Below the pieces are notes generated by a model. That model did not search any database and was not told the DNA's origin. It was given only the letters and a program-made list of their open reading frames with translations. Shown here in pieces: positions 1,260 through 60,758 of a DNA stretch of 64,000 nt. Position numbers and translations under genes: made by a program. Position 1 is the first letter of the stretch, and the number at the start of each line of letters is the position of its first letter. Source of the stretch: Vicinamibacteria bacterium (GTDB lineage: Bacteria; Acidobacteriota; Vicinamibacteria; Marinacidobacterales; Marinacidobacteraceae); contig CAXXLQ010000004.1 in the NCBI GenBank assembly GCA_963668695.2, positions 2,848,001 to 2,912,000 of the forward strand, written 5' to 3'.

Positions 1260-2681
1260 CTAGCGTTCGGGTTTCAGCAAGGCTCGGAAGGCTGGAGGAA
1301 CGTTCATTCCGAGGGTTTCCGCTTTGGCCAAGTGGTTCCTGGCCTCGGCGGTACGACCTCGCTGGCGCGCCACATCCGCAAGCAGGAAATGGAGGCCGGC
1401 GCGTTGGCCGGCGGCCGCCTCGTCTTTCTCGGCGGCTGCCAATGCCCGATCCAGGGTTTCCGCCGCCTCGCTGAGCCGGCCCAGGGTTGCGAGCAACTGG
1501 CCGAGACCCTGCAGGGCTCCAGGGTGATCGGGTTCCTGGGCCAGCGCCAAGCGCAGGTAACGTTCCGCCTGCCGAAGATCGCCGCGCTGGAAGTGGAGGC
1601 TCGAGGCCCCGAGGAGCGTCGGGACGTGAGTCGAGTCGGCGGCGACCGAACGACGGTAGAGATCGTCGGCCTCCCGGTCGCGTCCGCTCCGTGCCAACAG
1701 GTTGGCCAGGTTAGCCATCGCCGCGCTCGAATCCGGGTCGCGCCCAAGGGCCTCGCGGTAAGCGGCTTCGGCGTCGTCGTTGCGGCCGAGCCGGGCGAGC
1801 GAGTTGCCGTGGTTGTAGTGCAGCTCCGCGCTGTCCGGACTCTCGGTGAGCAGGCGCCGATAGATGGCTTCGGCGGTCTGATGATCGCCGGCGGCGCTCG
1901 CGCGCCGGGCCCGGGCCTCCTGTCCCCGGCTGTCGGCCCGCAGATCCTCGACAGCGACGAGAAGGGGGTCTTGGTCCGCGGTGATCCCGAGGGACAGCGA
2001 GCGGGAGGCGGCCCGGGCGCGGGCGGCGGCATTCGCCGCAGCCTGGGGGTCCCCGAGGCGTCTTTCGATCTGGGACAGGAAGGACCACCCCGCGGCGGAA
2101 GACGGGACGCGGTCCACGACGAGTTCGAGTGCGGCGCGGGCACCCGTCAAATCGCCGTCCGCGATTCGACGTCGTCCAAGGGCGAGAGACGCCTCCGCGG
2201 AGTTCGGGGCGTTTTGCCGTAACGCCTCCCAGCCGGCTCCCGCCGCCTCGTCCTGGCCAGTCGCCTCCAGCGTTCGCGCGCTGAGAGCAAGGGACGGGGA
2301 AAAACGGGGATTCCGGCGGAGCGCCTCGCCGGCGAGTTCGAGGGCCCGAGCCGGGTCGGCGCCCTCCAGCAGCCGGCCGTGGAGGTGCGGCCAGCGGTGG
2401 TCGGCACCGCCGAGGCGCGCAGCCTCGGCGTAGGCAACCGCCGCCGGTCCGGTGAGACGATGGGCATGGAGGACCATCCCGAAACGGCCCCAAGCCGAAG
2501 AATCCCCCCGGTCCCGCTCAACCGCCGCCCGGGCGCGCCGGACGGCCTCGACAACGGAGGGCTCCATGCCGTCCGGGGAGACTTCGGGGATCTCGGCTCC
2601 CCCGCAGGCAGCCAGGAGCGCCAACAGCGGCCCCAGGAAACGACCCCCGCCGGCAGCGGTGGGGGCCGACGCCTCATTCAC
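1260..2681 (-). CDS. Tetratricopeptide repeat lipoprotein
   Basis: Lipobox LLAAC; repeated TPR patterns (HYNHGNSLARLGR, MANLANLLARSGR, LQGLGQLLATLGR); overlaps the end of the upstream CRTAC1 gene. Confidence 0.85.
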   Translation of the reverse strand: MNEASAPTAAGGGRFLGPLLALLAACGGAEIPEVSPDGMEPSVVEAVRRARAAVERDRGDSSAWGRFGMVLHAHRLTGPAAVAYAEAARLGGADHRWPHLHGRLLEGADPARALELAGEALRRNPRFSPSLALSARTLEATGQDEAAGAGWEALRQNAPNSAEASLALGRRRIADGDLTGARAALELVVDRVPSSAAGWSFLSQIERRLGDPQAAANAAARARAASRSLSLGITADQDPLLVAVEDLRADSRGQEARARRASAAGDHQTAEAIYRRLLTESPDSAELHYNHGNSLARLGRNDDAEAAYREALGRDPDSSAAMANLANLLARSGRDREADDLYRRSVAADSTHVPTLLGASSLHFQRGDLRQAERYLRLALAQEPDHPGALQGLGQLLATLGRLSEAAETLDRALAAAEKDEAAAGQRAGLHFLLADVARQRGRTAEARNHLAKAETLGMNVPPAFRALLKPER

Positions 2682-4290
2682 CGGGACTACCCTCGCCCCG
2701 AACCACGACCACCGCCTGGTCGAGGGCCGGTACCCGGAACACTTCCCGCGAGCCGTCCGACCAATGCACGCTCAGGCTCTGGAGCACGGTTGTGTCCGGA
2801 ATTCCGAAGTGGGCTCGCGGATCGCCGGAAGAGAGATACGAGACGCCCGGGTTCGCCCGCGCGATCCGGACCCCCGCCGCGGTCTGAAGGGCGACGGTGG
2901 CGCCGTGGTCGAGGGTGCCCGCCGGCAGCCGGGGTTCCACCATCAACCAGGCCCCCTCCCCGGCAGAGCGGTTCTCGAAAATCCGGGCGCGGCCGTCCGC
3001 GGCGGTAATCACCAGGTCGAGGTCGCCGTCCGCGTCCAGATCCCCGGCCGCCAGGCCGCGGCCGACAACGGGGATCTGGCTGAGTTCGGGCGACAGTGCC
3101 CCGGCGTCTCGGAAGCGGTCTCCGTCGCCGCGGAGGACCAGGGCAGGCTCCGCGTATTGCTCGAAGAACGGAGAACGTGGAGATTCCCCGGGGGGGCGGG
3201 CTACCCGTCCGTTGGCGATCACCGCATCGAGGATCCCGTCGTGGTCGAAATCTCCCAGGGCGACTCCGAACCCGGTCATGCGGAGGCCGAGCGTCCCGAG
3301 TCCGAGGTCGATCGAGCCGTCCACGAAGCCGATTCCCGGTTCCGCGAGATAGACGGTATTCGTCTCCTCGGCGAAGTGCGTGAGCAGGATGTCGAGGACG
3401 CCGTCGCCGCTTAGATCCCCTATCTCCACTCCCATCCCGGCTTCCGGGCGGCCGAAACCGCTGAGCGCGGCGCCCAATAGCAGCGCCTCTTCCCCGAAGG
3501 TCCCGTCGCCCTGGTTCACCCACAGGTGATTCGCCTCGGTGTCGTTCGCCACGTAGAAGTCCGGCCGTCCGTCGCCCGTGAAGTCCTGGCAAACGACTCC
3601 CAGGCCCCTGGCCGGCAGAGCCGCGATCCCGGTCTCGCTCCCGACTTCCACGAACGTGCCGTCGCCACGGTTGCGGTAGAGAAGATCCGGTAAGCCGGGT
3701 ATATCGGTCGGGTTGCAGTAGTCCTGCTCACCGGTGGCCGCGAAGCATGAGAAGCCCGGGTCGTAGTCCAGGTAGCGGGTCACGAAGAGGTCGAGGCTCC
3801 CATCCGCGTCGTAGTCGCAAAAGGTCGCGGATGCCGACCAACCTTGGTCCCAGGGTCCTCCGTCGGACACCTGGAAACCATCCGGGCCGGAGTTGAGCAG
3901 AAGGACGTCTCGCCCGAATCCGGTGCGAAAGAGGTCCAGATCTCCATCCCCGTCGACGTCTCCGGCCGCGACCCCCATGCCGTAAGCGCGGGTGGCCGGG
4001 ATTCCCGGGGCGTCGCCAAACCGGATTCCCGGACCGCGGTTCTCGAAGAGCCGGTCCTCGCCCTCACCCTGGACGAGATAGAGGTCCAGATCGCCGTCAC
4101 CGTCCTGGTCGAAGAGCGCGACTCCCGAACCCATGATTTCGGGCATGAAGTAGTCCGGGCGGCCGTCACCGGTGCTACCGGGGTGGTGGATGAATTCGGC
4201 GCCCGAATCGGAGGTTACGTCGGTGAAGCGCGGCTGCCCCGCGCCCGACGCGACGGCGACCGCGAGGCCCCCCGCGGCGACCATCCGCAA
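2674..4290 (-). CDS. CRTAC1 / ASPIC-UnbV family FG-GAP repeat protein
   Basis: Multiple DxDGDGDLD Ca-binding repeats, GMGV, YVAND, C-terminal SYLSSGDPRAHFG (ASPIC/UnbV). Confidence 0.9.
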   Translation of the reverse strand: MRMVAAGGLAVAVASGAGQPRFTDVTSDSGAEFIHHPGSTGDGRPDYFMPEIMGSGVALFDQDGDGDLDLYLVQGEGEDRLFENRGPGIRFGDAPGIPATRAYGMGVAAGDVDGDGDLDLFRTGFGRDVLLLNSGPDGFQVSDGGPWDQGWSASATFCDYDADGSLDLFVTRYLDYDPGFSCFAATGEQDYCNPTDIPGLPDLLYRNRGDGTFVEVGSETGIAALPARGLGVVCQDFTGDGRPDFYVANDTEANHLWVNQGDGTFGEEALLLGAALSGFGRPEAGMGVEIGDLSGDGVLDILLTHFAEETNTVYLAEPGIGFVDGSIDLGLGTLGLRMTGFGVALGDFDHDGILDAVIANGRVARPPGESPRSPFFEQYAEPALVLRGDGDRFRDAGALSPELSQIPVVGRGLAAGDLDADGDLDLVITAADGRARIFENRSAGEGAWLMVEPRLPAGTLDHGATVALQTAAGVRIARANPGVSYLSSGDPRAHFGIPDTTVLQSLSVHWSDGSREVFRVPALDQAVVVVRGEGSPGE

Positions 4291-4292
4291 GA

Positions 4293-5579
4293 TCAGCGGC
4301 GCAGTACCGATCGCGGGCCGATATCCCCAAGGCTCGGGGTCCCGGCGAGCTGCATGGCGAGTTTCAGCTCGGCCCGCAGAATCCGAAGCACGGCCTCGAC
4401 TCCCGCTTCCCCGAAGGCCGCGAGCCCCCAGAGGTAAGCGCGACCAATCAGGATGGCGTCGGCGCCGAGAGCCAGGGCCTTGAAAATGTCCACCCCGCGA
4501 CGGATCCCGCTGTCCATGATCACCGGGATTCGACCCGCAATCGCTCCCGCTACCTCGGGCAGACTGTCGATGGTGCCGATCCCGCTCTCCTCGGCGCGCC
4601 CACCGTGGTTCGAAACCACGATCCCGTCCACGCCGTGCTCCAGGCAGAGCTCGGCGTCTTCCGCGGTGACGATTCCCTTGAGCAGGATCTTCATGCTCGT
4701 GGCGTCACGGAGCCGCTTGACCACATCCCAGGTAAGCGAGGCATCGTTGAGCCCGGCGAAACGACTTCGTCCGTTCGCGTCTTCCACCTCGATCCCGTCG
4801 AACATGCTCTTCCGGGAGACATAGTTGGCGAAACCCGGGACATGGCAGATCTCGCATTCGCGCGGGTCGAGCCGGGCCGAGAGCGCCGTGGTGATCCGGT
4901 TGCTTCCGGCGGGGAGGTCCACCGTCAGCACTACAGCGGGACAACCCGCCGCCTCCGCGCGACCGACGAGCTGCTTGGTCACCTCGAAGGAAGTGGTCGG
5001 ATAGAGCTGGTACCAGACGGGCTCACCGCGCGCTTCGTTCACCTCTTCGACGCCGGAGGTAGTCACCGTGGAGAGCAGTTGGAGGTGGTCCACCGTCCGC
5101 GCGGCCCGCGCCACCGCGACCTCCCCCTCCGGGTGAAAGGCCTTCTGGCTTCCGCACGGCGCGATGCCGATGGGGGAGGTCCATTGCCGGCCAAAGAGTT
5201 CCACCGACATGTCCGGGTCCGATACGTCCACGAGCCGGCGCGCCCGGATGCCGACGTTCTCGAGAGCCCGCCGGTTGGCGGCGAGGGTTCCCTCGCCGTC
5301 CACGCCGGTGGCGATGTAGCCATAGTGCGCGGGAGGGAGGTTCTGCTCCGCGACCACCCGGAAGTCGAACACATCGACAGCTTCTTCCGGGGAACCGACA
5401 GGCATCCGGGGGAATTGGCTGTAGCCGAAATGTTCCATGCCGCCAGCATCCGGCGCCCGGGTTTCCTGCCCGCCCGCGGTGCGGGGTTCCCAACATCCCG
5501 AGGAAAACAGCAACGGACTCCCGGCCAGATAGCGCAGGAAGCGGCGACGATTCGGGGTTAGGTCGTTCGGGTCACGCAT
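4293..5579 (-). CDS. FMN-dependent alpha-hydroxy acid oxidase/dehydrogenase with Tat signal
   Basis: WYQLY, LTVD, LLKGI, VSNHGGR, DSGIRRGVD, IGRAYLWGL motifs; N-terminal NRRRFL. Confidence 0.9.
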   Translation of the reverse strand: MRDPNDLTPNRRRFLRYLAGSPLLFSSGCWEPRTAGGQETRAPDAGGMEHFGYSQFPRMPVGSPEEAVDVFDFRVVAEQNLPPAHYGYIATGVDGEGTLAANRRALENVGIRARRLVDVSDPDMSVELFGRQWTSPIGIAPCGSQKAFHPEGEVAVARAARTVDHLQLLSTVTTSGVEEVNEARGEPVWYQLYPTTSFEVTKQLVGRAEAAGCPAVVLTVDLPAGSNRITTALSARLDPRECEICHVPGFANYVSRKSMFDGIEVEDANGRSRFAGLNDASLTWDVVKRLRDATSMKILLKGIVTAEDAELCLEHGVDGIVVSNHGGRAEESGIGTIDSLPEVAGAIAGRIPVIMDSGIRRGVDIFKALALGADAILIGRAYLWGLAAFGEAGVEAVLRILRAELKLAMQLAGTPSLGDIGPRSVLRR

Positions 5580-19122: not shown

Positions 19123-21502
19123 TGGGAAACCCAGCAGCCGGTGCCGGAACCCAGGCGGCCCAGTTCTCCCGGTGGGGGCTCGCCCGGCGATGCATCCCGG
19201 CCAAACACCCGGTAGTGAAACCCACGCGGCCCAGTTCTCCCGGTGGGGGCTCGGCCGGCGATCCATCCCGGCCAAACAACCGGTGATGAAACCCACGCGG
19301 CCCAGTTCTCCCGGTGGGGGCTCGGCCGGCGATCCATCCCGGCTGACCGCGTCGCTGCGCGCCGCTCATCGTTGCGTTTCGGTCGAAATACACCAGGTAT
19401 TCCTCCCTAACGCGCCTTGTCAGCCGGGCGTCTCACCGGCCTCGGCGCTCACGCGGGTTCCACCACCGGCTGTTCACCGCGTCGCTGCGCGCCGCTCATC
19501 GTTGCGTATCGGTCGGAATACACCCGGGCCAGTTCTCCCGGTGGGGGCTCCTCCCTCACGCGCCTTGTCAGCCGGGCCCCCACCGGGAGAACTGGGCCTC
19601 ACCGGCCTCGGCGCTCACGTGGGTTCCACCACCGGCTGTTCACCACTCCGCTCCGCTTCGTTCTGTGTTGCGTTTCGGTCGAAATACACCCGGGCCAGTT
19701 TTCCCGGTGGGGGCTCCTTCCTCACGCGCCTTGTCAGCCGCGCGCCTCACCCCCACCGGGAGAACTGGCGGGCTCGGCGCTCACCCGGGTTCCACCACCG
19801 ACTGCCAGAGCTCGGGCTCGCGGTGTTGCTCGGTGCATCGCCGGCGGCGGGTGAGAACTTCGTCTTCGTGGACCGGACCGAGGCGGCTGGAATCCGCTTC
19901 CACCACGAGGACGGCGGCAGCGGCCGGCGTTACGTGATCGAGATTGTCGGCGCGGGTGTCGCGGTATTCGATTACGACGGCGACGGTTGGCCGGATCTTT
20001 TTTTCGTGAACGGGCACCCGCTGCCAGGTGATACGGGCGGGGGGACGGTCGGGAACCGTCTTTTTCGGAACCGGGGGGACGGGACCTTCCGGGACCGCAC
20101 CGAGGAAGCGGGACTGCTGGATGCGCCGGACGGCCTCCGCTACGGCATGGGGGCCGTCGCGGGTGACCTCGACGGCGACGGCGATCCGGACCTGCTCGTT
20201 ACGCATTTCGGCGAAGAACGGCTCTTCCGGAATCAGGGAGACGGCACCTTTCGCGAAGTCCCGGGCGCCGGCGGTGCGAGCGATGCCCGCTGGACGACCA
20301 GCGCCGCGCTCTTCGATCCCGACGGGGACGGGGATCTGGACGTCTACGCCGCGAATTACCTCGACTACGCGCTGGAACGGCACCGCGACTGCGTGAGTCC
20401 GGTCAAGGAAGTTCTCGCCTACTGCCACCCGCAGGAATACCCGGGAGCGGCCGATTCCTTCTTCGAGAACCTGGGGGACGGGACGTTCCGGGCGGTTCCC
20501 GTTCCCGGTTCGGAGGAAGGGAAGGGGTTGGGAGTGGTCATCACGGACCTCGGAGACGACGGTGCGCCGGACGTGCACGTCGCGAACGACACGACCCCGA
20601 ACTTCCTGTTCCGGACGGAGTCCGGGCCGGAGGGGGTCCGGTTTGTCGAGGACGGGCTCGCATCCGGCGTCGCGTACAACGAGGAGGGCCTCCCGGAAGC
20701 CGGGATGGGCAACGATTGGGGAGACGTGGACCGTGACGGGCGCATGGACCTCGTCGTCACGAACTTCGACTTCGAGACGAACACCCTTTACCGGAACCTC
20801 GGCGGCGGGCTCTTCCTGGACGCCACCGCGGCCTTCGGAATCGGAAGCGAGAGCCTCACCGAACTCGCCTTCGGGTGCGATCTCGCCGATTTCGACAATG
20901 ACGGCTGGCTGGACCTGGTGGTGGCAAACGGCCACATTCTCGACAACATCGCGAAAATCCAGTCGAACCTCCGTTTCGCCCAGCCTGGTCAGGTGTTCCG
21001 GAACAACCACGGCGTCCTGAGACGCAGCCGGGCCAGCGAGGGCGACTTCGCCCGGCCGCGGGTTGGACGGGCTCTTGCCAGTCTCGACTACGACCTCGAC
21101 GGGGATCTGGACCTCGTTCTCGCCAACAACCGGGGTCCGGCGGAGTTGCTCGAGAACCGGGGCGGGGACCAATCGGGGCGTTCGGTGGGCTTCTTGCTGG
21201 TCGGGACCAGCGGAAACCGGGACGGGATCGGAGCGCTCCTGAGCCTCGCGAGCGGCGACCTCGTGCAGCGCGAGGAGCGGCGGGCAGGGGCCAGCTACCT
21301 GGCTCAGCACGATCCCGTGATGTGGTTCGGTCTCGGCCAAGCGGCCAGCGCCAGCGACATCACGATTCGGTGGCGGTCCGGGCGGGAGGAGTTCCTCGGA
21401 TCCCTGCCGGCGGGGTGGGTCCACATCATCAAGGAGGGGTCCGGGCGCATCGGCGGCTCCGAGGTGGGCGCCCGGGGGGACTCGAACCGGGAGGCGCGAT
21501 GA
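19122..21502 (+). CDS. CRTAC1 / ASPIC-UnbV family protein, N-terminus interrupted by a repeat element
   Basis: FG-GAP repeats DYDGDGWPD, DLDGDGDPD, DFDNDGWLD and C-terminal SYLAQHDPVMWFGLG from ~19805. ATG 19122 overlaps the upstream TGA and becomes in frame if the insert is removed. Confidence 0.8.
19132..19807 (+). mobile_element. Compound family A MITE-like element (tandem internal units, many nested modules)
   Basis: CA|GCAGCCGGTG ... CACCGACTGC|CA; three copies of the CGTTGCG...TCGGTCGAAATACACC core and about seven nested modules. Confidence 0.8.
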
Positions 21503-36307: not shown

Positions 36308-37105
36308 GTGCTACTGGAAAAGAAACGAGGGCTGATCGTCGGGGTCGCGAACCACCGCTCCTTTGCGTGGGGCATCGCCCGGTCTACGGCGCGCGAGGGC
36401 GCCGAGCTCGCCCTCAGCTTCCAGAACGAGCGGCTCCAGCGCAATGTGGACAAGCTGGCGGCCGGGCTCCCGGGGACCATCACCTTTCCGCTCGACGTCT
36501 CGAGCGAAGAGCAGTTGGAGCGCGCGGTCGAGACCGTCCGGGAACGTTTCGGCGGGCTTGACTTCCTGGTCCACGCCGTCGCCTACGCGCTGCGCGAGGA
36601 CCTCAAGGGCGATTTCGTTTCCACCTCCCGCGAAGGGTTCCGGGTGGCCCACGACATCTCGGTCTATTCGCTGACGGCGCTGGTCCGGCACTTCGCGCCG
36701 CTGCTCGAGGCGGACGGAGGCGGTTCGGCCCTGACCCTCAGCTACCTGGGAGGCGAGCGGGCGGTTCCCCACTACAACGTGATGGGGGTGGCCAAGGCGG
36801 CGCTCGAGTCCTCGGTCCGTTACCTGGCCAGCGACCTGGGTCCGCGCGGCGTTCGGGTGAACGCGATTTCGGCAGGCCCGGCAAAGACGCTCGCCGCCTC
36901 GGGAGTCTCCGGAATCGGAAAAATGGTGGAGCACTACCGCGAATACGCGCCGCTCCGCGCCGGCACCGATCCGATGGAAGTGGGAGACGCGGCGGCGTTC
37001 CTCCTGTCCGACGCCGCGCGCGGAATTACCGGCGAAGTGCTGCATGTGGACAGCGGATTTCACGCGCTGGGCGCGACGATTCCCGGATTGGGCGTTGGGG
37101 CCTAG
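36308..37105 (+). CDS. fabI: Enoyl-ACP reductase
   Basis: GVANHRSFAWGIA, DISVYS, LSYLG, YNVMGVAKAALE, VNAISAGP.KTLA. Confidence 0.95.
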   Translation: MLLEKKRGLIVGVANHRSFAWGIARSTAREGAELALSFQNERLQRNVDKLAAGLPGTITFPLDVSSEEQLERAVETVRERFGGLDFLVHAVAYALREDLKGDFVSTSREGFRVAHDISVYSLTALVRHFAPLLEADGGGSALTLSYLGGERAVPHYNVMGVAKAALESSVRYLASDLGPRGVRVNAISAGPAKTLAASGVSGIGKMVEHYREYAPLRAGTDPMEVGDAAAFLLSDAARGITGEVLHVDSGFHALGATIPGLGVGA

Positions 37106-37116
37106 CGGACAAGGCG

Positions 37117-38412
37117 ATGACCGATCCGACCCGGAACGCTGAAGAGCGGGGAGATCCGCGATTTCCGACGGGGAACGGCAACGTTCCCACCACGAAGGCG
37201 CTGATTTACGACTGGAATCGGCCGGATCCCGACAACGCCTGGTTCCCGCCCAAACCGGTCCTGCTGAACGACGAGACGCTCCGGGACGGGCTCCAGAGCC
37301 CGTCGGTCGTGTCGCCCTCGCTCGAGAACAAGGCGAAGGTGCTCCACCTGATGGAGTCGCTGGGGATTCACTCGGCCGACATCGGGCTTCCCGCCGCCGG
37401 CCCGCACGTGGAGGAGCAGGTCCTGCATCTCGCCCGGGAGATCGTGGACAACCGGATGAAAATTCGTCCCAACTGCGCGGCGCGCACGGTCATCTCCGAC
37501 ATCGAGCCGATTGCGCGGGTGGCCGACAAGGTCGGCATACCGATCGAGGTCGCGATGTTCATCGGGTCGAGTCCCATCCGCCAGTACGCCGAGGATTGGA
37601 ACCTCGATCTGCTGCTCCGCCACACCGAAAAGGCGGTGTCGTGGGCGGTCGCCCACGGCGTGCCGCCGATGTATGTGACCGAGGACACCACCAGGGCGCG
37701 TCCCGAGAGCATCCGCCGGCTCTACACGGCGGCGATCGAGGCGGGGGCGCGGCGCGTGGTGGTCTGCGACACCGTGGGGCACGCAACCCCGGACGGAGTC
37801 ACGCGCCTGCTGCGTTTCGTTCGCGGGGTGATCGATGACACCGGAGAGGACGTCCAGCTCGACTGGCACGGGCACCGGGACCGGGGACTGTCCGTCCCGA
37901 ACAGCCTCACCGCGATCGAAGCCGGCGCCGACTGCGTTCACGGGACCGCGATCGGCATCGGGGAGCGCTGCGGCAACGCGCCGATGGATCAGTTGCTCGT
38001 GAACCTGCGCCTCCTCGGGTGGATCGACAACGACCTGACCCACCTGGCCGACTATTGCCAGACGGTTGCCGAAGCCACTTCGACCCGCATCCCGCCCGGC
38101 TATCCGGTGGTTGGGAAGGACGCCTTTCGGACGGGGACCGGCGTGCACGCCGCGGCCATCATCAAGGCGATGGCCAAGGGCGACGAATGGCTGGCGGACC
38201 GCGTCTATTCGGGCGTCCCGGCCGGGGACTACGGCCTCCACCAACAAGTCGAGGTCGGCCCCATGAGCGGCCTTTCGAACGTCATCTACTGGCTGCAAAA
38301 GCATGGACACGAGCCGACCGACGAGTTGAAGCACCGGATCTTTCGCGCGGCCAAGGACGCGCGACGGCTGCTGACCGATGACGAAATCGAGGCGCTGATC
38401 GCGTCCCCCTGA
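37117..38412 (+). CDS. LeuA family (2-isopropylmalate/homocitrate synthase-like) DRE-TIM enzyme without regulatory domain
   Basis: DETLRDGLQ, EDTTR, DTVG, HGHRD, GIGERCGN, GVH. Confidence 0.85.
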   Translation: MTDPTRNAEERGDPRFPTGNGNVPTTKALIYDWNRPDPDNAWFPPKPVLLNDETLRDGLQSPSVVSPSLENKAKVLHLMESLGIHSADIGLPAAGPHVEEQVLHLAREIVDNRMKIRPNCAARTVISDIEPIARVADKVGIPIEVAMFIGSSPIRQYAEDWNLDLLLRHTEKAVSWAVAHGVPPMYVTEDTTRARPESIRRLYTAAIEAGARRVVVCDTVGHATPDGVTRLLRFVRGVIDDTGEDVQLDWHGHRDRGLSVPNSLTAIEAGADCVHGTAIGIGERCGNAPMDQLLVNLRLLGWIDNDLTHLADYCQTVAEATSTRIPPGYPVVGKDAFRTGTGVHAAAIIKAMAKGDEWLADRVYSGVPAGDYGLHQQVEVGPMSGLSNVIYWLQKHGHEPTDELKHRIFRAAKDARRLLTDDEIEALIASP

Positions 38413-38440
38413 TCGCGTCCCCCTGATCGCGTCCCCCTGA
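38395..38440 (+). repeat. 14-bp tandem repeat x3 spanning the stop codon
   Basis: CTGATCGCGTCCCC three times, followed by CTGA. Confidence 0.9.
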
Positions 38441-38477
38441 CGGGACGCGTCGGGTTTGTCCGGCCGGCTATTGCCAC

Positions 38478-39221
38478 TAGTGTCATGTCACATGTGATAT
38501 GTCGTATTTGACGGTAGCCTGCTCGTCGCCCAACGAGGGCGAGGAGGCCGCAATCCCCGCAGGGCAACGCGGACTTCGCGGCGGCGATGGAGCGAGTGCT
38601 GGATGTCTATCGGCGTCCCTACGATGCGGCCTTTCCGGTCGTGTGCATGGACGAGACGCCCCGGCAACTGATCGGGGAGACCCGGGTGCCCATCCCGTCG
38701 GCACCGGGGCGGGCGCTGCGCCAGGACTACGAGTATCGGCGCTGCGGAACCTGCAACGTGTTCATGGCGAGCGAGCCTCTGGCTGGGCGGCGCATGACCA
38801 AGGTCACGGCCCGGCGAACCAAGACCGACTGGGCGCACTTCCTCAACGACATCGCCAAGCGGCACCCCGATGCCAAGCGGATCACGCTGGTGATGGACAA
38901 CCTCAGGCACGCACCGCCCCGGCGCCTTCTACGAGACCTTTCCCCCGGCACGAGCCAAGGCGCTGTGGGACCGCTTTGAGTTCGTCTACACCCCCAAGCA
39001 CGGCAGTTGGCTCAACGTCGCCGAGGTCGAACTCAATGTCCTGATCCGTCAGTGCCTCAACCGTCGCATTGACTCCCTCGAGACCCTGCGCGACGAGGTC
39101 GCGGCCTGGCAGGCGTCCCGAGACCGCATCCAGGCCAAGGTCAACTGGCAGTTCACCACGGACGATGCCCGCGTCAAGCTGAAACGCCTCTACCCGACAC
39201 TTGATGAATGACAGGACACTA
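38478..39221 (+). mobile_element. IS630 family insertion sequence, internally deleted
   Basis: TA|GTGTCATGTCA ... TGACAGGACAC|TA (11-bp IR, one mismatch), each end within ACTAGT. Only ~65 bp separates the left IR from the DDE domain. Confidence 0.9.
38557..39211 (+). pseudogene. IS630 transposase DDE domain, lacking the N-terminal HTH and frameshifted near 38905
   Basis: PQGNADFAAAMERVLDVY, CMDE, DYEYRRCG, VMDNL; then in a shifted frame THRPGAFYETF...YTPKHGSWLNVAEVE...VNWQFTTDDARVKLKRLYP, stop at 39211. Confidence 0.9.
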
Positions 39222-40584
39222 GTGCGACATGTTCGGCTCCAACCGAACCCGCTAGAGCGACATGTTCCCGGGCAGATCCTGCTAGTGCGACATGTTCCGA
39301 TCCAGCCGGCCCGGCTAGTGCGACATGTTCCCCCGGGCAGATCCGGCTACTGCGACATGTTCGGCTCCAGCCGATCCCGCTACTGCGACATGTTTCCCGG
39401 GCAGATCCGGCTACTGCGACATGTTTCCCGGGCAGATCCGGCTACTGCGACATGTTCGGCTCCAGCCGATCCCGCTACTGCGACATGTTCCCCCCGTAGA
39501 TCCGGCTATTGCGACATGTTCGGCTCCAGCCGATCCCGCTAGAGCGACATGTTCCCCCCGCCGAACCGGTTAGAGCGACATGTTCGGCTCCAGCCGACCC
39601 CGCTAGAGCGACATGTTCCCCGGGCAGATCCGGTTAGTGCGACATGTTCGCCTCCAGCCGATCCCGCTAGAGCGACATGTTCCCCCCGCAGATCCGGTTA
39701 GTGCGACATGTTCGGCTCCAGCCGATCCCGCTAGAGCGACATGTTCCCCGGCAGATCCGGCTAGTGCGACATGTTCGGCTCCAGCCGATCCCGCTAGAGC
39801 GACATGTTCCCCCCGCAGAACCGGTTAGAGCGACATGTTCGGCTCCAGCCGATCCCGCTAGAGCGACATGTTCCCCGGCAGATCCCGCTAGTGCGACATG
39901 TTCGGCTCCAGCCGATCCCGCTAGAGCGACATGTTCCCCGGCAGAACCCGCTACTGCGACATGTTCGGCTCCAGCCGACCCCGCTAGAGCGACATGTTCC
40001 CCGGCAGATCCGGCTAGTGCGACATGTTCGGCTCCAGCCGACCCCGCTAGAGCGACATGTTCCCCCCGCAGATCCGGCTAGTGCGACATGTTGGGCTCCA
40101 GCCGATCCCGCTAGAGCGACATGTTCCCCGGCAGATCCCGCTAGTGCGACATGTTCGGCTCCAGCCGACCCCGCTAGAGCGACATGTTCCCCCCGCAGAT
40201 CCGGCTAGTGCGACATGTTCGGCTCCAGCCGATCCCGCTAGAGCGACATGTTCCCCGGCAGATCCGGCTAGTGCGACATGTTCGGCCCCGGCCTCCAGCG
40301 GTTAGTGCGACATGTTCGGCCCCAGCCGATCCCGCTAGAGCGACATGTTCCCCGGCAGATCCCGCTAGAGCGACATGTTCGGCTCCAGCCGATCCCGCTA
40401 GAGCGACATGTTCCCCGGCAGGCTAGAGCGACAGCCGATCCCGCTAGAGCGACATGTTCGGCTCCAGCCGATCCCGCTAGAGCGACATGTTCCCCGGCCG
40501 ATCCCGCTAGAGCGACATGTTCGGCTCCAGCCGATCCCGCTAGAGCGACATGTTCCCCCCGCAGATCCGGCTACTGCGACATGT
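39220..40584. repeat. Tandem array of about 44 units, mostly alternating 33-nt (A) and 30/31-nt (B)
   Basis: Core TA(G/C)(T/A)GCGACATGTT followed by CGGCTCCAGCCGATCCCGC (A) or C4-6 G(G)CAGATCC(G/C)GC (B); units counted by hand. Confidence 0.97.
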
Positions 40585-40698
40585 CAGGCGTCCCGAGACC
40601 GCATCCAGGCCAAGGTCAACTGGCAGTTCACCACGGACGATGCCCGCGTCAAGCTGAAACGCCTCTACCCGACACTTGATGAATGACAGGACACTAGT
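40585..40698 (+). mobile_element. Second copy of the IS630 right end (114 bp direct repeat of 39110-39223)
   Basis: CAGGCGTCCCGAGACC...GAATGACAGGACACTAGT is identical in both places. Confidence 0.95.
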
Positions 40699-40738
40699 AG
40701 CGGTCCGCCGATCCGGGGATCGCCGCTGTTCGTGGCGG

Positions 40739-41620
40739 CTACCGCCGCGAGAGGACGGTAGCCACGCCCTCGTGGATGAGACGCGCGGCGAGGATCAGCG
40801 TCCGGTGGTCGCGGTCGTCCGGACAAGCCTCCACGACATCCATCCCCAGGAGGCGGCGCCCCGAAGTTGCGATTTCCTTGACGAGCTCGAGCCCCGCCCG
40901 CGCCGACAGCCCGCCCGGAACCGGATGGGCCACCGCCGGGGCGAAGGCCGGGTCGAACCCGTCCATATCCACCGTCAGGTAGATCGCGGCACCCTCCGGG
41001 AGGTGGGACAGGAGCGCCGTTCGCCTCTCCGCCTCCCAGGCCGGAATCTGCGTGACCCGGCCACCCGACGACTCCCGGATCCCGCGCTGCACCGAGGTCT
41101 CGGTACGGACTCCGATCTGGGTGATGCTCGCCACGTGCGGCATTTCCAGCAGGCGGGCGGCAACGCAGGCGTGGGAGTCCGGGTTGCCCTCGAAGTCCGG
41201 ATACATGTCGGGATGGGCGTCCCACTGGACCACCTGGATCGGACCTCGTCCCGCGTAGGCGGCCACCAGCGCGGGGGTGATCGCGTGGTCGCCCCCGAGG
41301 ATGAAGGGAGTCCGGCCCCGTGCGAGTTCCGCCTCGATCGCGGCCCGATACCGCGCGGCGTTCTCCCGGAAACCCGCACCGTCCGGCCCCAGGTCGCCAA
41401 CGTCCGCAACACTCCCCGCGCAGTCCACCCCGCTCTCGGAGACCGGGTTGTAGCAGGCGCCGTCGTAGGCGGCGCGGATCGCGGGCGGCGCCTCGGCGCA
41501 GCGATCGCGGTAGGTGGACTGGGTCGCGTCCATGACGCCGAGCAGGGAGACGGAGGAATGTTCGGCGTCCGCGCCGGCCGCGATCAGACCCCCAAACGGG
41601 ATTCTGGTTGGTTCGTGCAC
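40739..41620 (-). CDS. Arginase/agmatinase (ureohydrolase) family protein
   Basis: DVGD, LGGDHAIT, WDAHPD, SHAC, QIGVR, VDMDGFDP.FAP, DVVE; start uncertain. Confidence 0.9.
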   Translation of the reverse strand: MHEPTRIPFGGLIAAGADAEHSSVSLLGVMDATQSTYRDRCAEAPPAIRAAYDGACYNPVSESGVDCAGSVADVGDLGPDGAGFRENAARYRAAIEAELARGRTPFILGGDHAITPALVAAYAGRGPIQVVQWDAHPDMYPDFEGNPDSHACVAARLLEMPHVASITQIGVRTETSVQRGIRESSGGRVTQIPAWEAERRTALLSHLPEGAAIYLTVDMDGFDPAFAPAVAHPVPGGLSARAGLELVKEIATSGRRLLGMDVVEACPDDRDHRTLILAARLIHEGVATVLSRR

Positions 41621-41662
41621 GCCGGTATGTTGGCAGCACGCGGCATTTAAGCTCCCGGGAAG

Positions 41663-43159
41663 ATGGCTGCTCCGCCGCGCCCCGCCGCGTCCGTGATGCT
41701 CACCCGCGGCGACGAAGTGCTCCTGGTTCGGCGCTCGCCGCGCCTCAAGGCGTTCGCGAACCTGTGGGCGTTCCCCGGCGGGACGCTTTCCGAAGGGGAT
41801 TGGGGGATCCCCGTCAGCGGCGCACCGGATGCCGAGATGGCAACCCGGATAGCGGCCGCGGTGCGCGAGGTGTTCGAGGAGACCGGGGTATTCCTGGGGC
41901 AGGGCAGGAGGCCTCTTTCGGTGTCCGACCGGGACGAACTCCGCCAGGCCCTGCTCGCCGGCGAGATTGGACTCGAGGAGGTCCTCGAAGGCTTCGGTGC
42001 GGAAATCGATGCCTCGCACTTCGCCCCGGTCGAAGAACTCGTGACGCCGGAATCGGCCCCCTTCCGGTTCGACACCCGCTTCTACCGGCTCCCGCTACCG
42101 GACGGCGCCGAACCGTCGGTGTGGCCCGGGGAGATCGTCGATCAGGCCATGCTCCGTCCCGAGGCGGCGCTCGCTCGTTGGCGCGGCGGAGAGATGGCGC
42201 TGGCGCCGCCCATCATTGGCCTCCTGGAGCGGTGGTCTCCCGACGATGGAGTCTTTCGGGATCGCAACCGGGAGGCGGCCCGCCTGCGGCCGGCGGTCCG
42301 CTATTCGCCCGGCATCGCGGTGGTCCCCTGCCGGACGCGCACTCTGCCGCCCGCGACCCACACGAACAGCGTCCTCATCGGCACCTCACGCCGCTACCTG
42401 GTGGACCCTGCCGCGGAAGACCGGGCGGAGCGGCGCGAGCTGTTCGAAATGGTCGACCGGCAGCTCGGACCGGGAGACCGGCTCGAGGCGGTTCTCGTCA
42501 CCCATCACCACCGCGACCACATCGGGTCGGTTTCCGCGGCGTCGTCACGCTATGGGGTTCCGGTCGGGGCCCATCCGGAGACCCTCGCCCGGATCCCGGC
42601 GCCTCCCGGGGGCGTCATCGAACTCGGCGAGGGAGACGCGCTCGACCTCGGAGACGCCCCCGACGGGTCGTCCGGCTGGACGCTCGGGGTGCGGTTCGTG
42701 CCCGGACACGCTCCGGGACATCTTGCCTTCGTGGAGAGCCGCTACGGAGCGATGGTGGTGGGCGACATGGTCTCCTCGCTGTCCTCCATCCTCATTTCGC
42801 CGGAAGACGGGGATCTCGGCCAATACCTGGATTCACTGCGCCGCCTGGCGGCCGAATGCCGGGGGATCGTGTACCCGGCGCACGGGGTACCGGTGGTGGC
42901 CGGCGATGAGCTGCTGGGCGGCCAGCTCCGCCACCGGGAAGCCCGCGAAGCCAGTCTGCTCGCCGCGCTGGAACCCGCGCCCGCCCGCCTTCGGGACATC
43001 GGGCTCAGGGTCTATCCGCCGGCAGAGATTCCCCGCTGGGGTCCCGCCCGCGAGCTGGCGGAGGTCGCGCTCACCTCGGGCCTTCTGAAACTGCAACGCG
43101 AAGGCCGCGCCGCCCACGACGGCGGGCAGTGGCGCCTCAGAGAAGCGGTCAGTCCGTAA
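41663..43159 (+). CDS. NUDIX hydrolase fused to MBL-fold metallo-hydrolase (LACTB2-like)
   Basis: FPGG...AAVREVFEETGV and RFDTRFY; then TLPPATHTN, THHHRDHIG, PGHAPGH, GD, PAHG. Confidence 0.88.
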   Translation: MAAPPRPAASVMLTRGDEVLLVRRSPRLKAFANLWAFPGGTLSEGDWGIPVSGAPDAEMATRIAAAVREVFEETGVFLGQGRRPLSVSDRDELRQALLAGEIGLEEVLEGFGAEIDASHFAPVEELVTPESAPFRFDTRFYRLPLPDGAEPSVWPGEIVDQAMLRPEAALARWRGGEMALAPPIIGLLERWSPDDGVFRDRNREAARLRPAVRYSPGIAVVPCRTRTLPPATHTNSVLIGTSRRYLVDPAAEDRAERRELFEMVDRQLGPGDRLEAVLVTHHHRDHIGSVSAASSRYGVPVGAHPETLARIPAPPGGVIELGEGDALDLGDAPDGSSGWTLGVRFVPGHAPGHLAFVESRYGAMVVGDMVSSLSSILISPEDGDLGQYLDSLRRLAAECRGIVYPAHGVPVVAGDELLGGQLRHREAREASLLAALEPAPARLRDIGLRVYPPAEIPRWGPARELAEVALTSGLLKLQREGRAAHDGGQWRLREAVSP

Positions 43160-60114: not shown

Positions 60115-60758
60115 CAACAACCTGTGGTGAAACCCAGGCGGCGTTCAAGCGGCGATCGATCCCGCCGGAATACAACCCGGTATTCCTCCCTCACGCGCCT
60201 TGTCAGCCGGGCCCCCACCGGGAGGACTGGCCCCACCGGGAGAACTGGGCCTCGCCCCCACCGGGAGGACTGGCCGACCTCGGCGCTCACGTGGGTTCCA
60301 CCACCGGCTGTTCACCGCGTCGCTTCGCGCCGCTCATCGTTGCGTTTCGGTCGGAATACACCCGGTATTCCTCCCTCACGCGCCTTGTCAGCCGGGCCCC
60401 CACCGGGAGGACTGGCCCCACCGGGAGAACTGGGCCTCGCCCCCACCGGGAGGACTGGCCAACCTCGGCGCTCACGTGGGTTCCACCACCGGCTGTTCAC
60501 CGCGTCGCTTCGCGCCGCTCATCGTTGCGTTTCGGTCGGAATACACCCGGTATTCCTCCCTCACGCGCCTTGTCAGCCGGGCGCCTCCCCGGCCTCGGCG
60601 CTCCCGTGGGCTCCACCACCGGCTGTTCACCGCGCCGCTTCGCTCCGTTCTGCGTTGCGTTTCGGTCGAAATACACCCGGCATTCCTCCCTCACGCGCCT
60701 TGTCAGCCGGGCGCCTCACCGCTCTCGGCGCTCACCCGGGTTCCACCACAGGCTGTTA
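60115..60758 (+). mobile_element. Compound family A MITE-like element (tandem internal repeats)
   Basis: CA|ACAACCTGTGG ... CCACAGGCTGT|TA; core TTCCTCCCTCACGCGCCTTGTCAGCCGGG four times (spacing ~185, ~185, ~129) with nested modules. Confidence 0.85.

Follow-up and report, generated by a model that had tools for sequence, protein, structure and literature searches.

Satellite-like F1 arrays with a constant core in Candidatus Marinacidobacterium and the probable transfer of one array as insertion sequence cargo

Long satellite arrays that combine a higher-order period with an invariant, box-like core are regarded as a typical feature of eukaryotic chromosomes and as rare among bacteria. Mycobacterial interspersed repetitive units-variable number tandem repeats (MIRU-VNTR) consist of tandem units on a 40-100-bp scale at many intergenic loci with strain-variable copy number. 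Plasmid iterons and centromeres such as F sopC are direct repeats with a binding core and whole-helical-turn spacing, suited to multivalent binding or titration. Clusters of repetitive extragenic palindromic sequences and bacterial interspersed mosaic elements (REP/BIME) are imperfect palindromes in alternating orientation. A composite transposon associated with the insertion sequence (IS) IS630 reportedly shows, as the title of a paper has it, preferential transposition to TA in the 5'-CTAG-3' sequence. IS630 elements are described as cut-and-paste elements that duplicate TA on insertion (PMC2170065). The neisserial intergenic mosaic elements (NIME) combine a 20-bp dRS3 element with 6-bp terminal inverted repeats and RS segments of ~50-150 bp from more than 100 families (PMC1797815); a phage recombinase is known to target dRS3. 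In this study, we analyzed the F1 array, which lies at positions 39219-40584 of a stretch of 64,000 nucleotides (hereafter the window; coordinates refer to it unless a contig or locus is named) from a Vicinamibacteria bacterium (assembly GCA_963668695.2, contig CAXXLQ010000004.1, positions 2,848,001 to 2,912,000). The original prediction, made from the letters of the window, had matched this array to no known feature type. This was too strong a statement, as dispersed intergenic arrays with a conserved short element are known, e.g., the NIME of Neisseria (PMC1797815). No prior description of F1 arrays themselves was found in literature searches.

We propose that the locus as a whole is probably best explained as a bacterial satellite array that has travelled as cargo of an IS630 composite and whose core would act as a DNA-level recognition platform. 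Read from its sequence, the F1 array comprises 43 head-to-tail units of 30-33 bp each on the plus strand, together about 1.4 kb. A unit consists of a 15-nt core, CTA-NN-GCGACATGTT, followed by one of two linker types of 15-18 bp that mostly alternate. The 43 cores can be written as CTA-NN-GCGACATGT(T), with type A units of 33 nt and type B units of 30/31 nt. The distances between exact cores are 33 nt (n = 20), 31 nt (n = 10), 30 nt (n = 9) and 32, 34 and 46 nt (once each), and Tandem Repeats Finder (TRF) assigns to 39251-40584 a period of 64 with 21.2 copies, 87% matches and a score of 1585, besides a period of 127. The 10-mer GCGACATGTT occurs 42 times in the window, always on the plus strand and always within 39224-40554, compared to a chance expectation of 0.08, and none of 100 shuffles reached 42 copies; the 9-mer GCGACATGT occurs 43 times in the array. 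The array starts in phase at a CTAG that overlaps the end of an IS630 element and ends inside a core. Head positions and linkers have recombined across the core; toward the array's right end, for example, type A linkers carry CTAGAG heads.

Most of what had been anticipated for the array itself stands. About 44 units from position 39220 had been counted, close to the 43 units from 39219 found here. The CTAC heads said to lie at the left are indeed clustered in units 5-9, the TTAG heads expected in the middle occupy units 12, 14, 16, 20 and 35, and the supposed truncated units near 40400-40445 correspond to the broken 46-nt unit. A variable part of only two types is right as far as the two alternating linker types are concerned and wrong at the level of exact sequence, since 21 distinct exact linker variants are present among the 42 regular units. 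The same variants, all of two types, agree with the statement that the array is no CRISPR array with unique spacers. As for the cas genes said to be missing from the window, no cas1 is present in it, the only Cas1 match of the genome being located ~372 kb past the window end.

The F1 family extends well beyond the window. The genome under study (G000) was compared within a set of 41 genomes that contains G000 itself, 15 congeners (Candidatus Marinacidobacterium) and 25 genomes of other genera of the family and order; the closest relative of G000 is the sister species G001. Further arrays were found both in the genome and in its relatives. Genome-wide, the core pattern gave 302 matches versus 0 for a reversed control, and core matches group into seven arrays of 17, 17, 54, 86, 40, 64 and 43 cores and 22 single copies. 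One of the two 17-core arrays, located on contig C1, exactly matches the array at C4:309478 in every unit and reflects assembly redundancy, leaving six non-redundant F1 arrays of 17-86 cores each. The 22 single copies of the 9-mer outside arrays compare to ~24 expected from base composition, and the motif is therefore essentially confined to arrays and not a dispersed operator. The core is common to all six arrays, each of which has its own linker pair. Their orientations along contig C4 are -,-,+,-,-,+; a replication-strand bias was considered and rejected, as no two-arm pattern is apparent.

Among the 41 genomes, the two-core pattern is present in five including G000, i.e., in 4 of the 15 congeners and in none of the 25 genomes from other genera. 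The assemblies of these four congeners consist of 1 to 20 contigs. The pattern was not found in the closed or near-closed genomes G010 and G014; fragmented short-read assemblies cannot be judged. In a scan of 185,579 species, represented by one genome each, multi-unit arrays of the F1 design occurred only in Ca. Marinacidobacterium/Vicinamibacteria and in one other Acidobacteria metagenome-assembled genome (MAG). In total, the family was assembled in at least five genomes other than G000, four of which are long-contig congener assemblies. That the array might be unique to this assembly, as the original prediction had allowed, is thus false. Judged from these sequences, F1 is a lineage-specific family of bacterial satellite DNA with units of ~32 bp and a fast-evolving linker. 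Sequencing runs that contain this stretch include sponge metagenomes, and DNA runs of two other studies hold array k-mers as well as contigs across both IS junctions.

Tandem arrays of other unit designs (11-34 bp) that hold GCGACATGTT were also observed in unrelated taxa and metagenomes (L065, L074, L129, L112, L116, L117 and L150-L162), namely in one MAG each of Acidimicrobiia, Bacteroidetes and Bdellovibrionales and at 13 metagenome loci of ~8 designs. In the L150 group, L158 and L162, the 10-mer is as variable as the remaining unit. These arrays are probably chance matches. When viral contigs were scanned, the two-core F1 pattern retrieved three copies of one coding-looking sequence and the single head-plus-core pattern six lone matches, none of them array-like. 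The two-core pattern of a sister family, F5, had 0 matches in viral contigs. A phage or plasmid origin or a decoy function was rejected, because neither the F1 nor the F5 pattern has an array-like match there.

The core is the part of the unit that does not drift. Units were chained at ≤5 mismatches to 13 informative core positions, which yielded 515 regular units in 18 arrays from five species. In these units, GCGACATGT is mismatched at 7 of 4635 positions. Within arrays, core positions 6-14 deviate from the array's own consensus by 0-1%, compared to 0-23.5% for the linker positions (means of ~8.6% and ~7.7% for the two linkers). Likewise, the array consensus departs from the majority in 0 of 16-17 arrays at core positions 1-3 and 6-15 versus up to 8-9 of 16-17 arrays at linker positions, and linkers of different arrays diverge at up to half of their positions. 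Head positions 4-5 are free to vary; the G of CTAG is the least conserved head position, being replaced by C or T in many units and in whole arrays (7-8 of 16-17 consensuses differ). Since unequal exchange homogenizes whole units, it cannot explain 13 positions that never drift beside neighbors that do. The pattern points either to purifying selection on each unit or to a propagation limited to units whose core is intact, and we read it as putative purifying selection on every unit.

The array in the window is enclosed by IS630 sequences, a context that the original prediction had missed. It is preceded by a degraded IS630-family element of 740 bp (38480-39219, plus strand), whose left inverted repeat (IR) starts with GTGTCATGTCA at 38480 and whose right IR ends with ...GACAGGACAC at 39219, the last base overlapping the first CTAG of the array. 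Its transposase gene lacks the 5' part and is frameshifted; the open reading frame (ORF) pieces 38518-38979 and 38894-39211 match PF13358 DDE_3 with E-values of 1.5e-16 and 4.7e-9 at profile positions 1-89 and 90-146, respectively. The array is followed by the 110-bp tail of a second IS630 copy (40585-40694, plus strand), which consists of the last 37 transposase codons and the right IR and exactly duplicates 39110-39219. With the following TAG included, 39110-39222 and 40585-40697 are identical at 113 of 113 positions. The junction between array and tail is illegitimate and falls inside a core (...GCGACATGT joined to CAGGCG...).

Read as inverted repeats, the termini of the block match at 10 of 11 positions, with GTGTCATGTCA at 38480 on the left and, on the right, the complement of GTGTCCTGTCA, which ends at 40694; TA is duplicated at the block edges (38478-38479 and 40695-40696). 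Outside the duplicated TA, the flanks join into a single proto-unit of a sister repeat family. Its left half (38431-38479, plus strand) ends with ...CTATTGCCAC and the left TA and aligns to an uninterrupted site in the congener G008; the right TA and the right half (GTAGCGGTCCGCCGATCCGG...) occupy 40695-40738 (plus strand), as compared with the empty sites of G008 and G004. The proto-unit is intact in G008, and the target can be read as ...CACTAGTAG..., containing CTAG. The block thus displays the features of a composite transposon: a remnant DDE_3 transposase gene, terminal IRs, a TA duplication, an uninterrupted target and a second site. The spacer that holds it, between an HMGL-like and an arginase-family gene, measures 2.3 kb in G000 and 4.8 kb in G001, compared to 36 to 681 bp in the ten congeners with both genes on one contig. 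CTAG is 9-fold depleted in the chromosome (1263 sites versus 11,359 expected), and 14.3% of these sites fall into the F1 arrays, which account for 0.27% of its DNA. Because CTAG is depleted elsewhere and concentrated to this extent in the arrays, these are the densest IS630 targets available in the chromosome. A resemblance of the core to the IS630 IRs was rejected by eye, as the core has only TAGTG...CATGT in common with the left repeat and does not have it in common with the right one.

Two related blocks are present in the sister species. At the orthologous locus of G001 (L036, G001:C17:3940300-3945600), 65 cores are split by a 2.5-kb IS21-type element. Junction and tail are as in the window (111 of 113 positions identical), and the left IS is gone through a deletion that ends inside a unit. 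A second block (L149:1086-6572) lies at an unrelated locus, with TA on both sides and flanks that differ from those of the window. Its order is TA, a full IS630, CTAG, 11 units, an IS21-type insertion, ~43 units, the identical junction, the tail (112 of 113 positions identical to the window tail) and TA; the full-length IS630 relative (L149:1086-2301) measures 1216 bp and is 85% identical to the IS630 of the window. Intact transposase genes of this IS630 subfamily are present in G008, where four copies give identical matches and have open frames of 286 codons. As the illegitimate junction is common to the three loci, these must be copies of one another. Because an IR- and TA-bounded block in CTAG is combined with a second copy that has the same junction at an unrelated locus, the window array appears not to be native to its locus and to have travelled as cargo of an IS630 composite transposon.

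The number and the order of the units have changed since. The three copies contain 43, 65 and ~54 units, in agreement with the local expansion or satellite-like change of copy number that had been suggested. The exact linkers of 42 window units are shared with the G001 orthologue in 29 cases, with the L149 block in 27, with the G000 array at C4:2553729 in 17 and with the other four G000 arrays in none. The best alignments between sister arrays reach 81-92% identity, compared to 98-99% for the adjoining 113-bp tail. The array at 2553729, between an aminotransferase and an isocitrate dehydrogenase gene, is the likely older source of the window array, because an array is found at that locus in four species (G000, G001, G004 and G008). 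In the same four genomes, an F1 array stands beside the same DCC1-like gene (protein identity 88-91%), and TRF (score ≥40) detected no intergenic repeat array beside this gene in G009 or G010. The array beside a different aminotransferase gene (C4:309478) is present in G000 and G008, and TRF found no tandem repeat in the equivalent stretches fetched from G004, G001 and G010.

The arrays contain IS and MITE (miniature inverted-repeat transposable element) insertions. IS21-type elements, recognized by a match to the Mu-transposase C-terminal domain, sit in both G001 sister arrays at different positions and in opposite orientations and are independent. With IS630-type ends at array CTAGs in addition, the proposed role as a landing site for IS is supported. 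The idea of a binding array fits the strong conservation of the core in each unit, the binding itself being putative, and nothing that points to rolling-circle-like copying was found. The IS21-type element of L149 spans 2619-5149, and one of the two G001 insertions lies inside the ACATGT of a core. A 164-bp derivative with the same IS21-type end occurs in the G000 array at 2553729, and in another Acidobacteria MAG (L082) this end borders the array.

From these data, the following history can be proposed. Two IS630 copies would have landed in CTAG sites of an older resident array. Acting as a composite transposon, they would have carried the DNA between them into the spacer that separates the HMGL-like from the arginase-family gene, presumably in the ancestor that G000 and G001 have in common. 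The second IS would then have been cut down to 110 bp by a deletion, and unequal recombination or replication slippage may since have changed the copy number and homogenized linkers locally. The core would be a DNA-level recognition site that must be intact in most units. Arrays could then act as multivalent platforms for a putative sequence-specific DNA-binding factor, e.g., in titration or local chromosome structuring. The most likely function would be that of an array for multivalent recognition at the DNA level, for instance as a platform for protein binding; units 21 and 30-33 bp long approximate two and three helical turns.

Several points weigh against this proposal. The left IS630 of L149 is only 85% identical to that of the window, so more than one IS630 subtype or insertion was involved, and no clean empty site for the L149 block was found in G000, where its flanks map 1.3 kb apart in swapped order. 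Five of the six G000 arrays have no IS630 ends; IS630 thus explains the move of this copy and not the origin of the arrays. The required match to at least 8 of 13 core positions slightly favors intact cores, 10 irregular stretches were set aside, and several of the 18 arrays are orthologous and thus not independent, such that the number of independent lineages is below 18. The constancy of the core could also reflect core-dependent amplification or recombination (molecular drive) instead of host function. Lengths of 31-33 bp correspond only approximately to three helical turns and may be inherited from a common ancestral unit. The six arrays have no conserved neighbor gene, the 35 flanking ORFs scanned with Pfam being unrelated housekeeping genes, and no common leader, since BLAST of their 1.5-kb flanks returned short shared motifs only.

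Core-dependent amplification without host function is the main rival to the recognition platform. The arrays would then be selfish or neutral minisatellites whose core remains constant because the expansion process needs it, for instance where unequal exchange or slippage favors the core or a recombinase acts on it, and units with a mutated core would not be copied and would be lost. We hold this to be possible though not probable. The fast turnover of copy number and unit order, most visible when sister arrays are set against their tail, would follow directly, as would the varying presence of arrays at given loci between species, the recombination of heads (positions 1-5) and linkers across the core and the tolerance of the arrays for IS and MITE insertions. 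Ordinary unequal crossing-over, however, would not leave just 13 of the ~32 positions untouched in all arrays of the five species, and no recombinase gene is linked to the arrays among the Pfam-scanned flanking ORFs. The same insertions could be read differently, namely if the arrays had evolved as a landing pad or trap for IS that target TA/CTAG, drawing IS630-type insertions away from genes into harmless intergenic DNA. The concentration of CTAG sites in the arrays, at least three IS630 ends at array CTAGs, the independent IS21-type insertions in both G001 sister arrays with the 164-bp derivative at 2553729, and the IS256-type right ends that abut arrays of the superfamily in 6 of 8 occurrences (5 of 7 non-redundant) would suit such a trap. 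We consider it improbable, given that precisely the G of CTAG is the head position that drifts most, that the strictly conserved GCGACATGTT is not an IS630 target and that the sister families do without CTAG; the insertions may simply be tolerated in the arrays.

A non-coding RNA array, cut into RNAs of 30-64 nt in a CRISPR-like manner or as a guide system with fixed "spacers", is suggested by the regular repeat-linker layout and by the ability of adjacent cores to pair via the palindrome ACATGT, with fold z-scores of -2.4 (plus strand) and -3.4 (minus strand). It appears highly improbable to us. Rfam gave no match over 37000-42500 with E up to 1, the consensus fold of 16 natural unit dimers contains only the ACATGT-ACATGT pairing of neighboring cores, with compensatory change in 0 of 11 pairs and a covariation term of +0.29, and no promoter-like site was detected; the one terminator-like site lies outside the array. 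Shared leader and linked genes are missing at the six arrays, only two linker types are present, and cas1 with a true CRISPR of a different repeat is found far outside the window. Metatranscriptome contig sets (X19, X20) do not cover the array at a flank depth of ~3-4, and such contigs cannot show the absence of RNA, as small RNAs are lost. One contig runs from the 3' region of the IS630 straight into the right flank, skipping the array; it is ambiguous, as 114 nt fit both sides, and may represent a graph collapse, a transcript or a loss of the array by recombination between the 113-bp copies. Finally, the repeat might have been collapsed or inflated by the assembly and be absent from the cells in its written form, a danger that the redundancy of the assembly and the inability of short-read contigs to span the array make worth weighing. 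Its probability is close to negligible: the family was assembled in the long contigs of four congeners, the right junction recurs at the orthologous G001 locus, and array k-mers and junction contigs are found in the runs of other studies. Independent DNA runs and sister-species copies exclude the assembly artefact that the original prediction had named as a way to fail.

Further candidates were rejected on simple grounds. The array is not coding, as its 64-bp period is not a multiple of three. A mini-ORF from the ATG of the core to the TAG of the next head is in frame for 33- and 30-nt units only and not for the common 31-nt units or for CTAC heads. It is no CRISPR array either, considering a conserved part of ~15 nt (versus repeats of ~23-50 nt), two recurring linkers and the lack of a leader and of adjacent cas genes. 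The genome does possess a true CRISPR with cas1 (C4:3281361-3284739), unrelated to the F1 arrays; its period is 61, its repeat is different, and the only Cas1 match (C4:3284095-3284739) stands beside it.

F1 is accompanied by at least five sister families of tandem arrays in G000. They follow one plan, in which a unit of ~32 bp or 32+21 bp begins with TA in its head and has both an 11-nt core peculiar to the family and a linker similar to ...GCCGAyCCCG. These cores read GACGCATGC in F2, TATCGCCCCCAG in F3, TCGCACCCAGTTCC in F4, CAGCGTGGAGTTCC in F5 and TATCGCGGGGACCACG in F6. On C4, their arrays of up to 1.45 kb are located at 122070-123461, 422916-424748, 172199-172839, 1173358-1174469, 1487264-1487684, 2093439-2094890, 2329596-2330693, 2741092-2741551, 3276749-3278091, 3551688-3552683 and 3734722-3735519, with different families often side by side. 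F2 occurs in 7 and F5 in 3 of the 41 genomes, all within the genus; like F1, neither was found in the closed genomes G010 and G014. A bolder suggestion is that these arrays, F1 included, represent a new class of bacterial chromosomal element, a true satellite DNA with a box motif, and that every sister family has a DNA-binding factor of its own to read it. As multivalent sponges or organizing centers, they could for instance titrate regulators, or proteins that replicate and partition mobile elements, and IS would spread them around the chromosome. We regard this as doubtful.

At C4:123484, 975804, 2741042, 3276723, 3734700 and 3897246, an array directly adjoins an IS256-family element (transposase PF00872, E 2e-129) at its right end and always lies on that side; no array accompanies this end at 1594954 and 3773502. 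Arrays may travel with this element too, or arise at its end. MITE-like repeats are extremely abundant in the genome (TRF periods 71, 90, 148, 166 and 184) and are found in the window at 19432-19804 and 60166-60757. As for the assembly, contig C1 repeats part of C4 (~305-450 kb) in reverse, and the last ~140 kb of C4 repeat its first 140 kb at an offset of ~3.774 Mb (3,773,818 to 3,774,033). The latter is probably an untrimmed circular overlap, and the redundancy may account for the reported contamination of 9.3%.

The genes on both sides of the block lie outside the element; throughout the genus they are next to each other and convergent. The left neighbor (37117-38412, plus strand) is the HMGL-like gene of the 2-isopropylmalate synthase/HMG-CoA lyase type (PF00682, E 1.5e-39), with orthologues of 89-98% identity in 14 of the 15 congeners; the right neighbor (40739-42019, minus strand) is the arginase-family gene (PF00491, E 7.6e-48), and the synteny of the pair is kept in 14 of the 15. 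The stop codon of the HMGL-like gene lies in a 14-bp string, of which 38395-38440 contains 3.3 copies with 100% matches; three copies are present in G001, the third being altered, and one each in G004 and G008. At the locus of the block, G004 and G008 carry two F3-like units, and an F3-like array forms the contig end in G003, G005 and G007.

The satellite superfamily in the intergenic DNA of an uncultured sponge symbiont is a compact system in which to ask why a short motif is kept in hundreds of copies. The locus documents a non-coding tandem array that has apparently been carried as IS630 composite cargo, and thereby a concrete route for the spread of satellites within a genome. There are practical consequences as well. 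The arrays break short-read assemblies of the genus, as illustrated by the three congeners whose contigs end in a related array at the window locus, and they can be mistaken for CRISPR arrays, with which they share the regular alternation of repeat and spacer-sized segments.

Compared with known systems, F1 shows what characterizes dispersed minisatellite or satellite DNA: head-to-tail units, several loci and a copy number that varies between relatives. Similar to MIRU-VNTR, unit families of variable copy number occupy many intergenic loci, yet the F1 arrays are much longer (17-86 cores) and have a two-unit higher-order period, a sharply delimited core and sister families with different cores. 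REP/BIME were rejected as a match because all 43 cores lie on one strand and no conserved hairpin is supported (0 of 11 pairs). Directly repeated units with a conserved core and a spacing near helical turns recall iterons and sopC by analogy, but the six arrays have no adjacent rep or par genes (no Rep or Par family was among the 35 Pfam-scanned neighboring ORFs) and are chromosomal, multi-locus and far larger. If the arrays were the new class of chromosomal element considered above, the logic of their box motif would be comparable to that of the CENP-B box in alternate alpha-satellite monomers.

In the case of the IS630 block, DDE_3 remnants, terminal IRs, a TA duplication at CTAG, two IS ends that bracket foreign DNA and a second copy agree with composite transposons of the Tc1/mariner-type IS630 family (PMC2170065). 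Unlike those, the block has a non-coding satellite instead of genes as cargo, one IS is a 110-bp tail and the other lacks the 5' part of its transposase gene; the mobility of the block is suggested by its copies. F1 differs from NIME by the lack of terminal inverted repeats, with only the internal palindrome ACATGT, by short linkers of two types per array, by strictly head-to-tail units, by its occurrence in a different phylum and in that no recombinase is known for its core. On the other side, NIME, like F1, form long intergenic arrays with more variable segments set between copies of a short conserved element, are syntenic in related species with differing unit numbers, contain IS insertions and have a conserved element regarded as a recognition site (PMC1797815). 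NIME are the closest known analogue, and the F1 array may well work like NIME without sharing the features by which NIME are defined.

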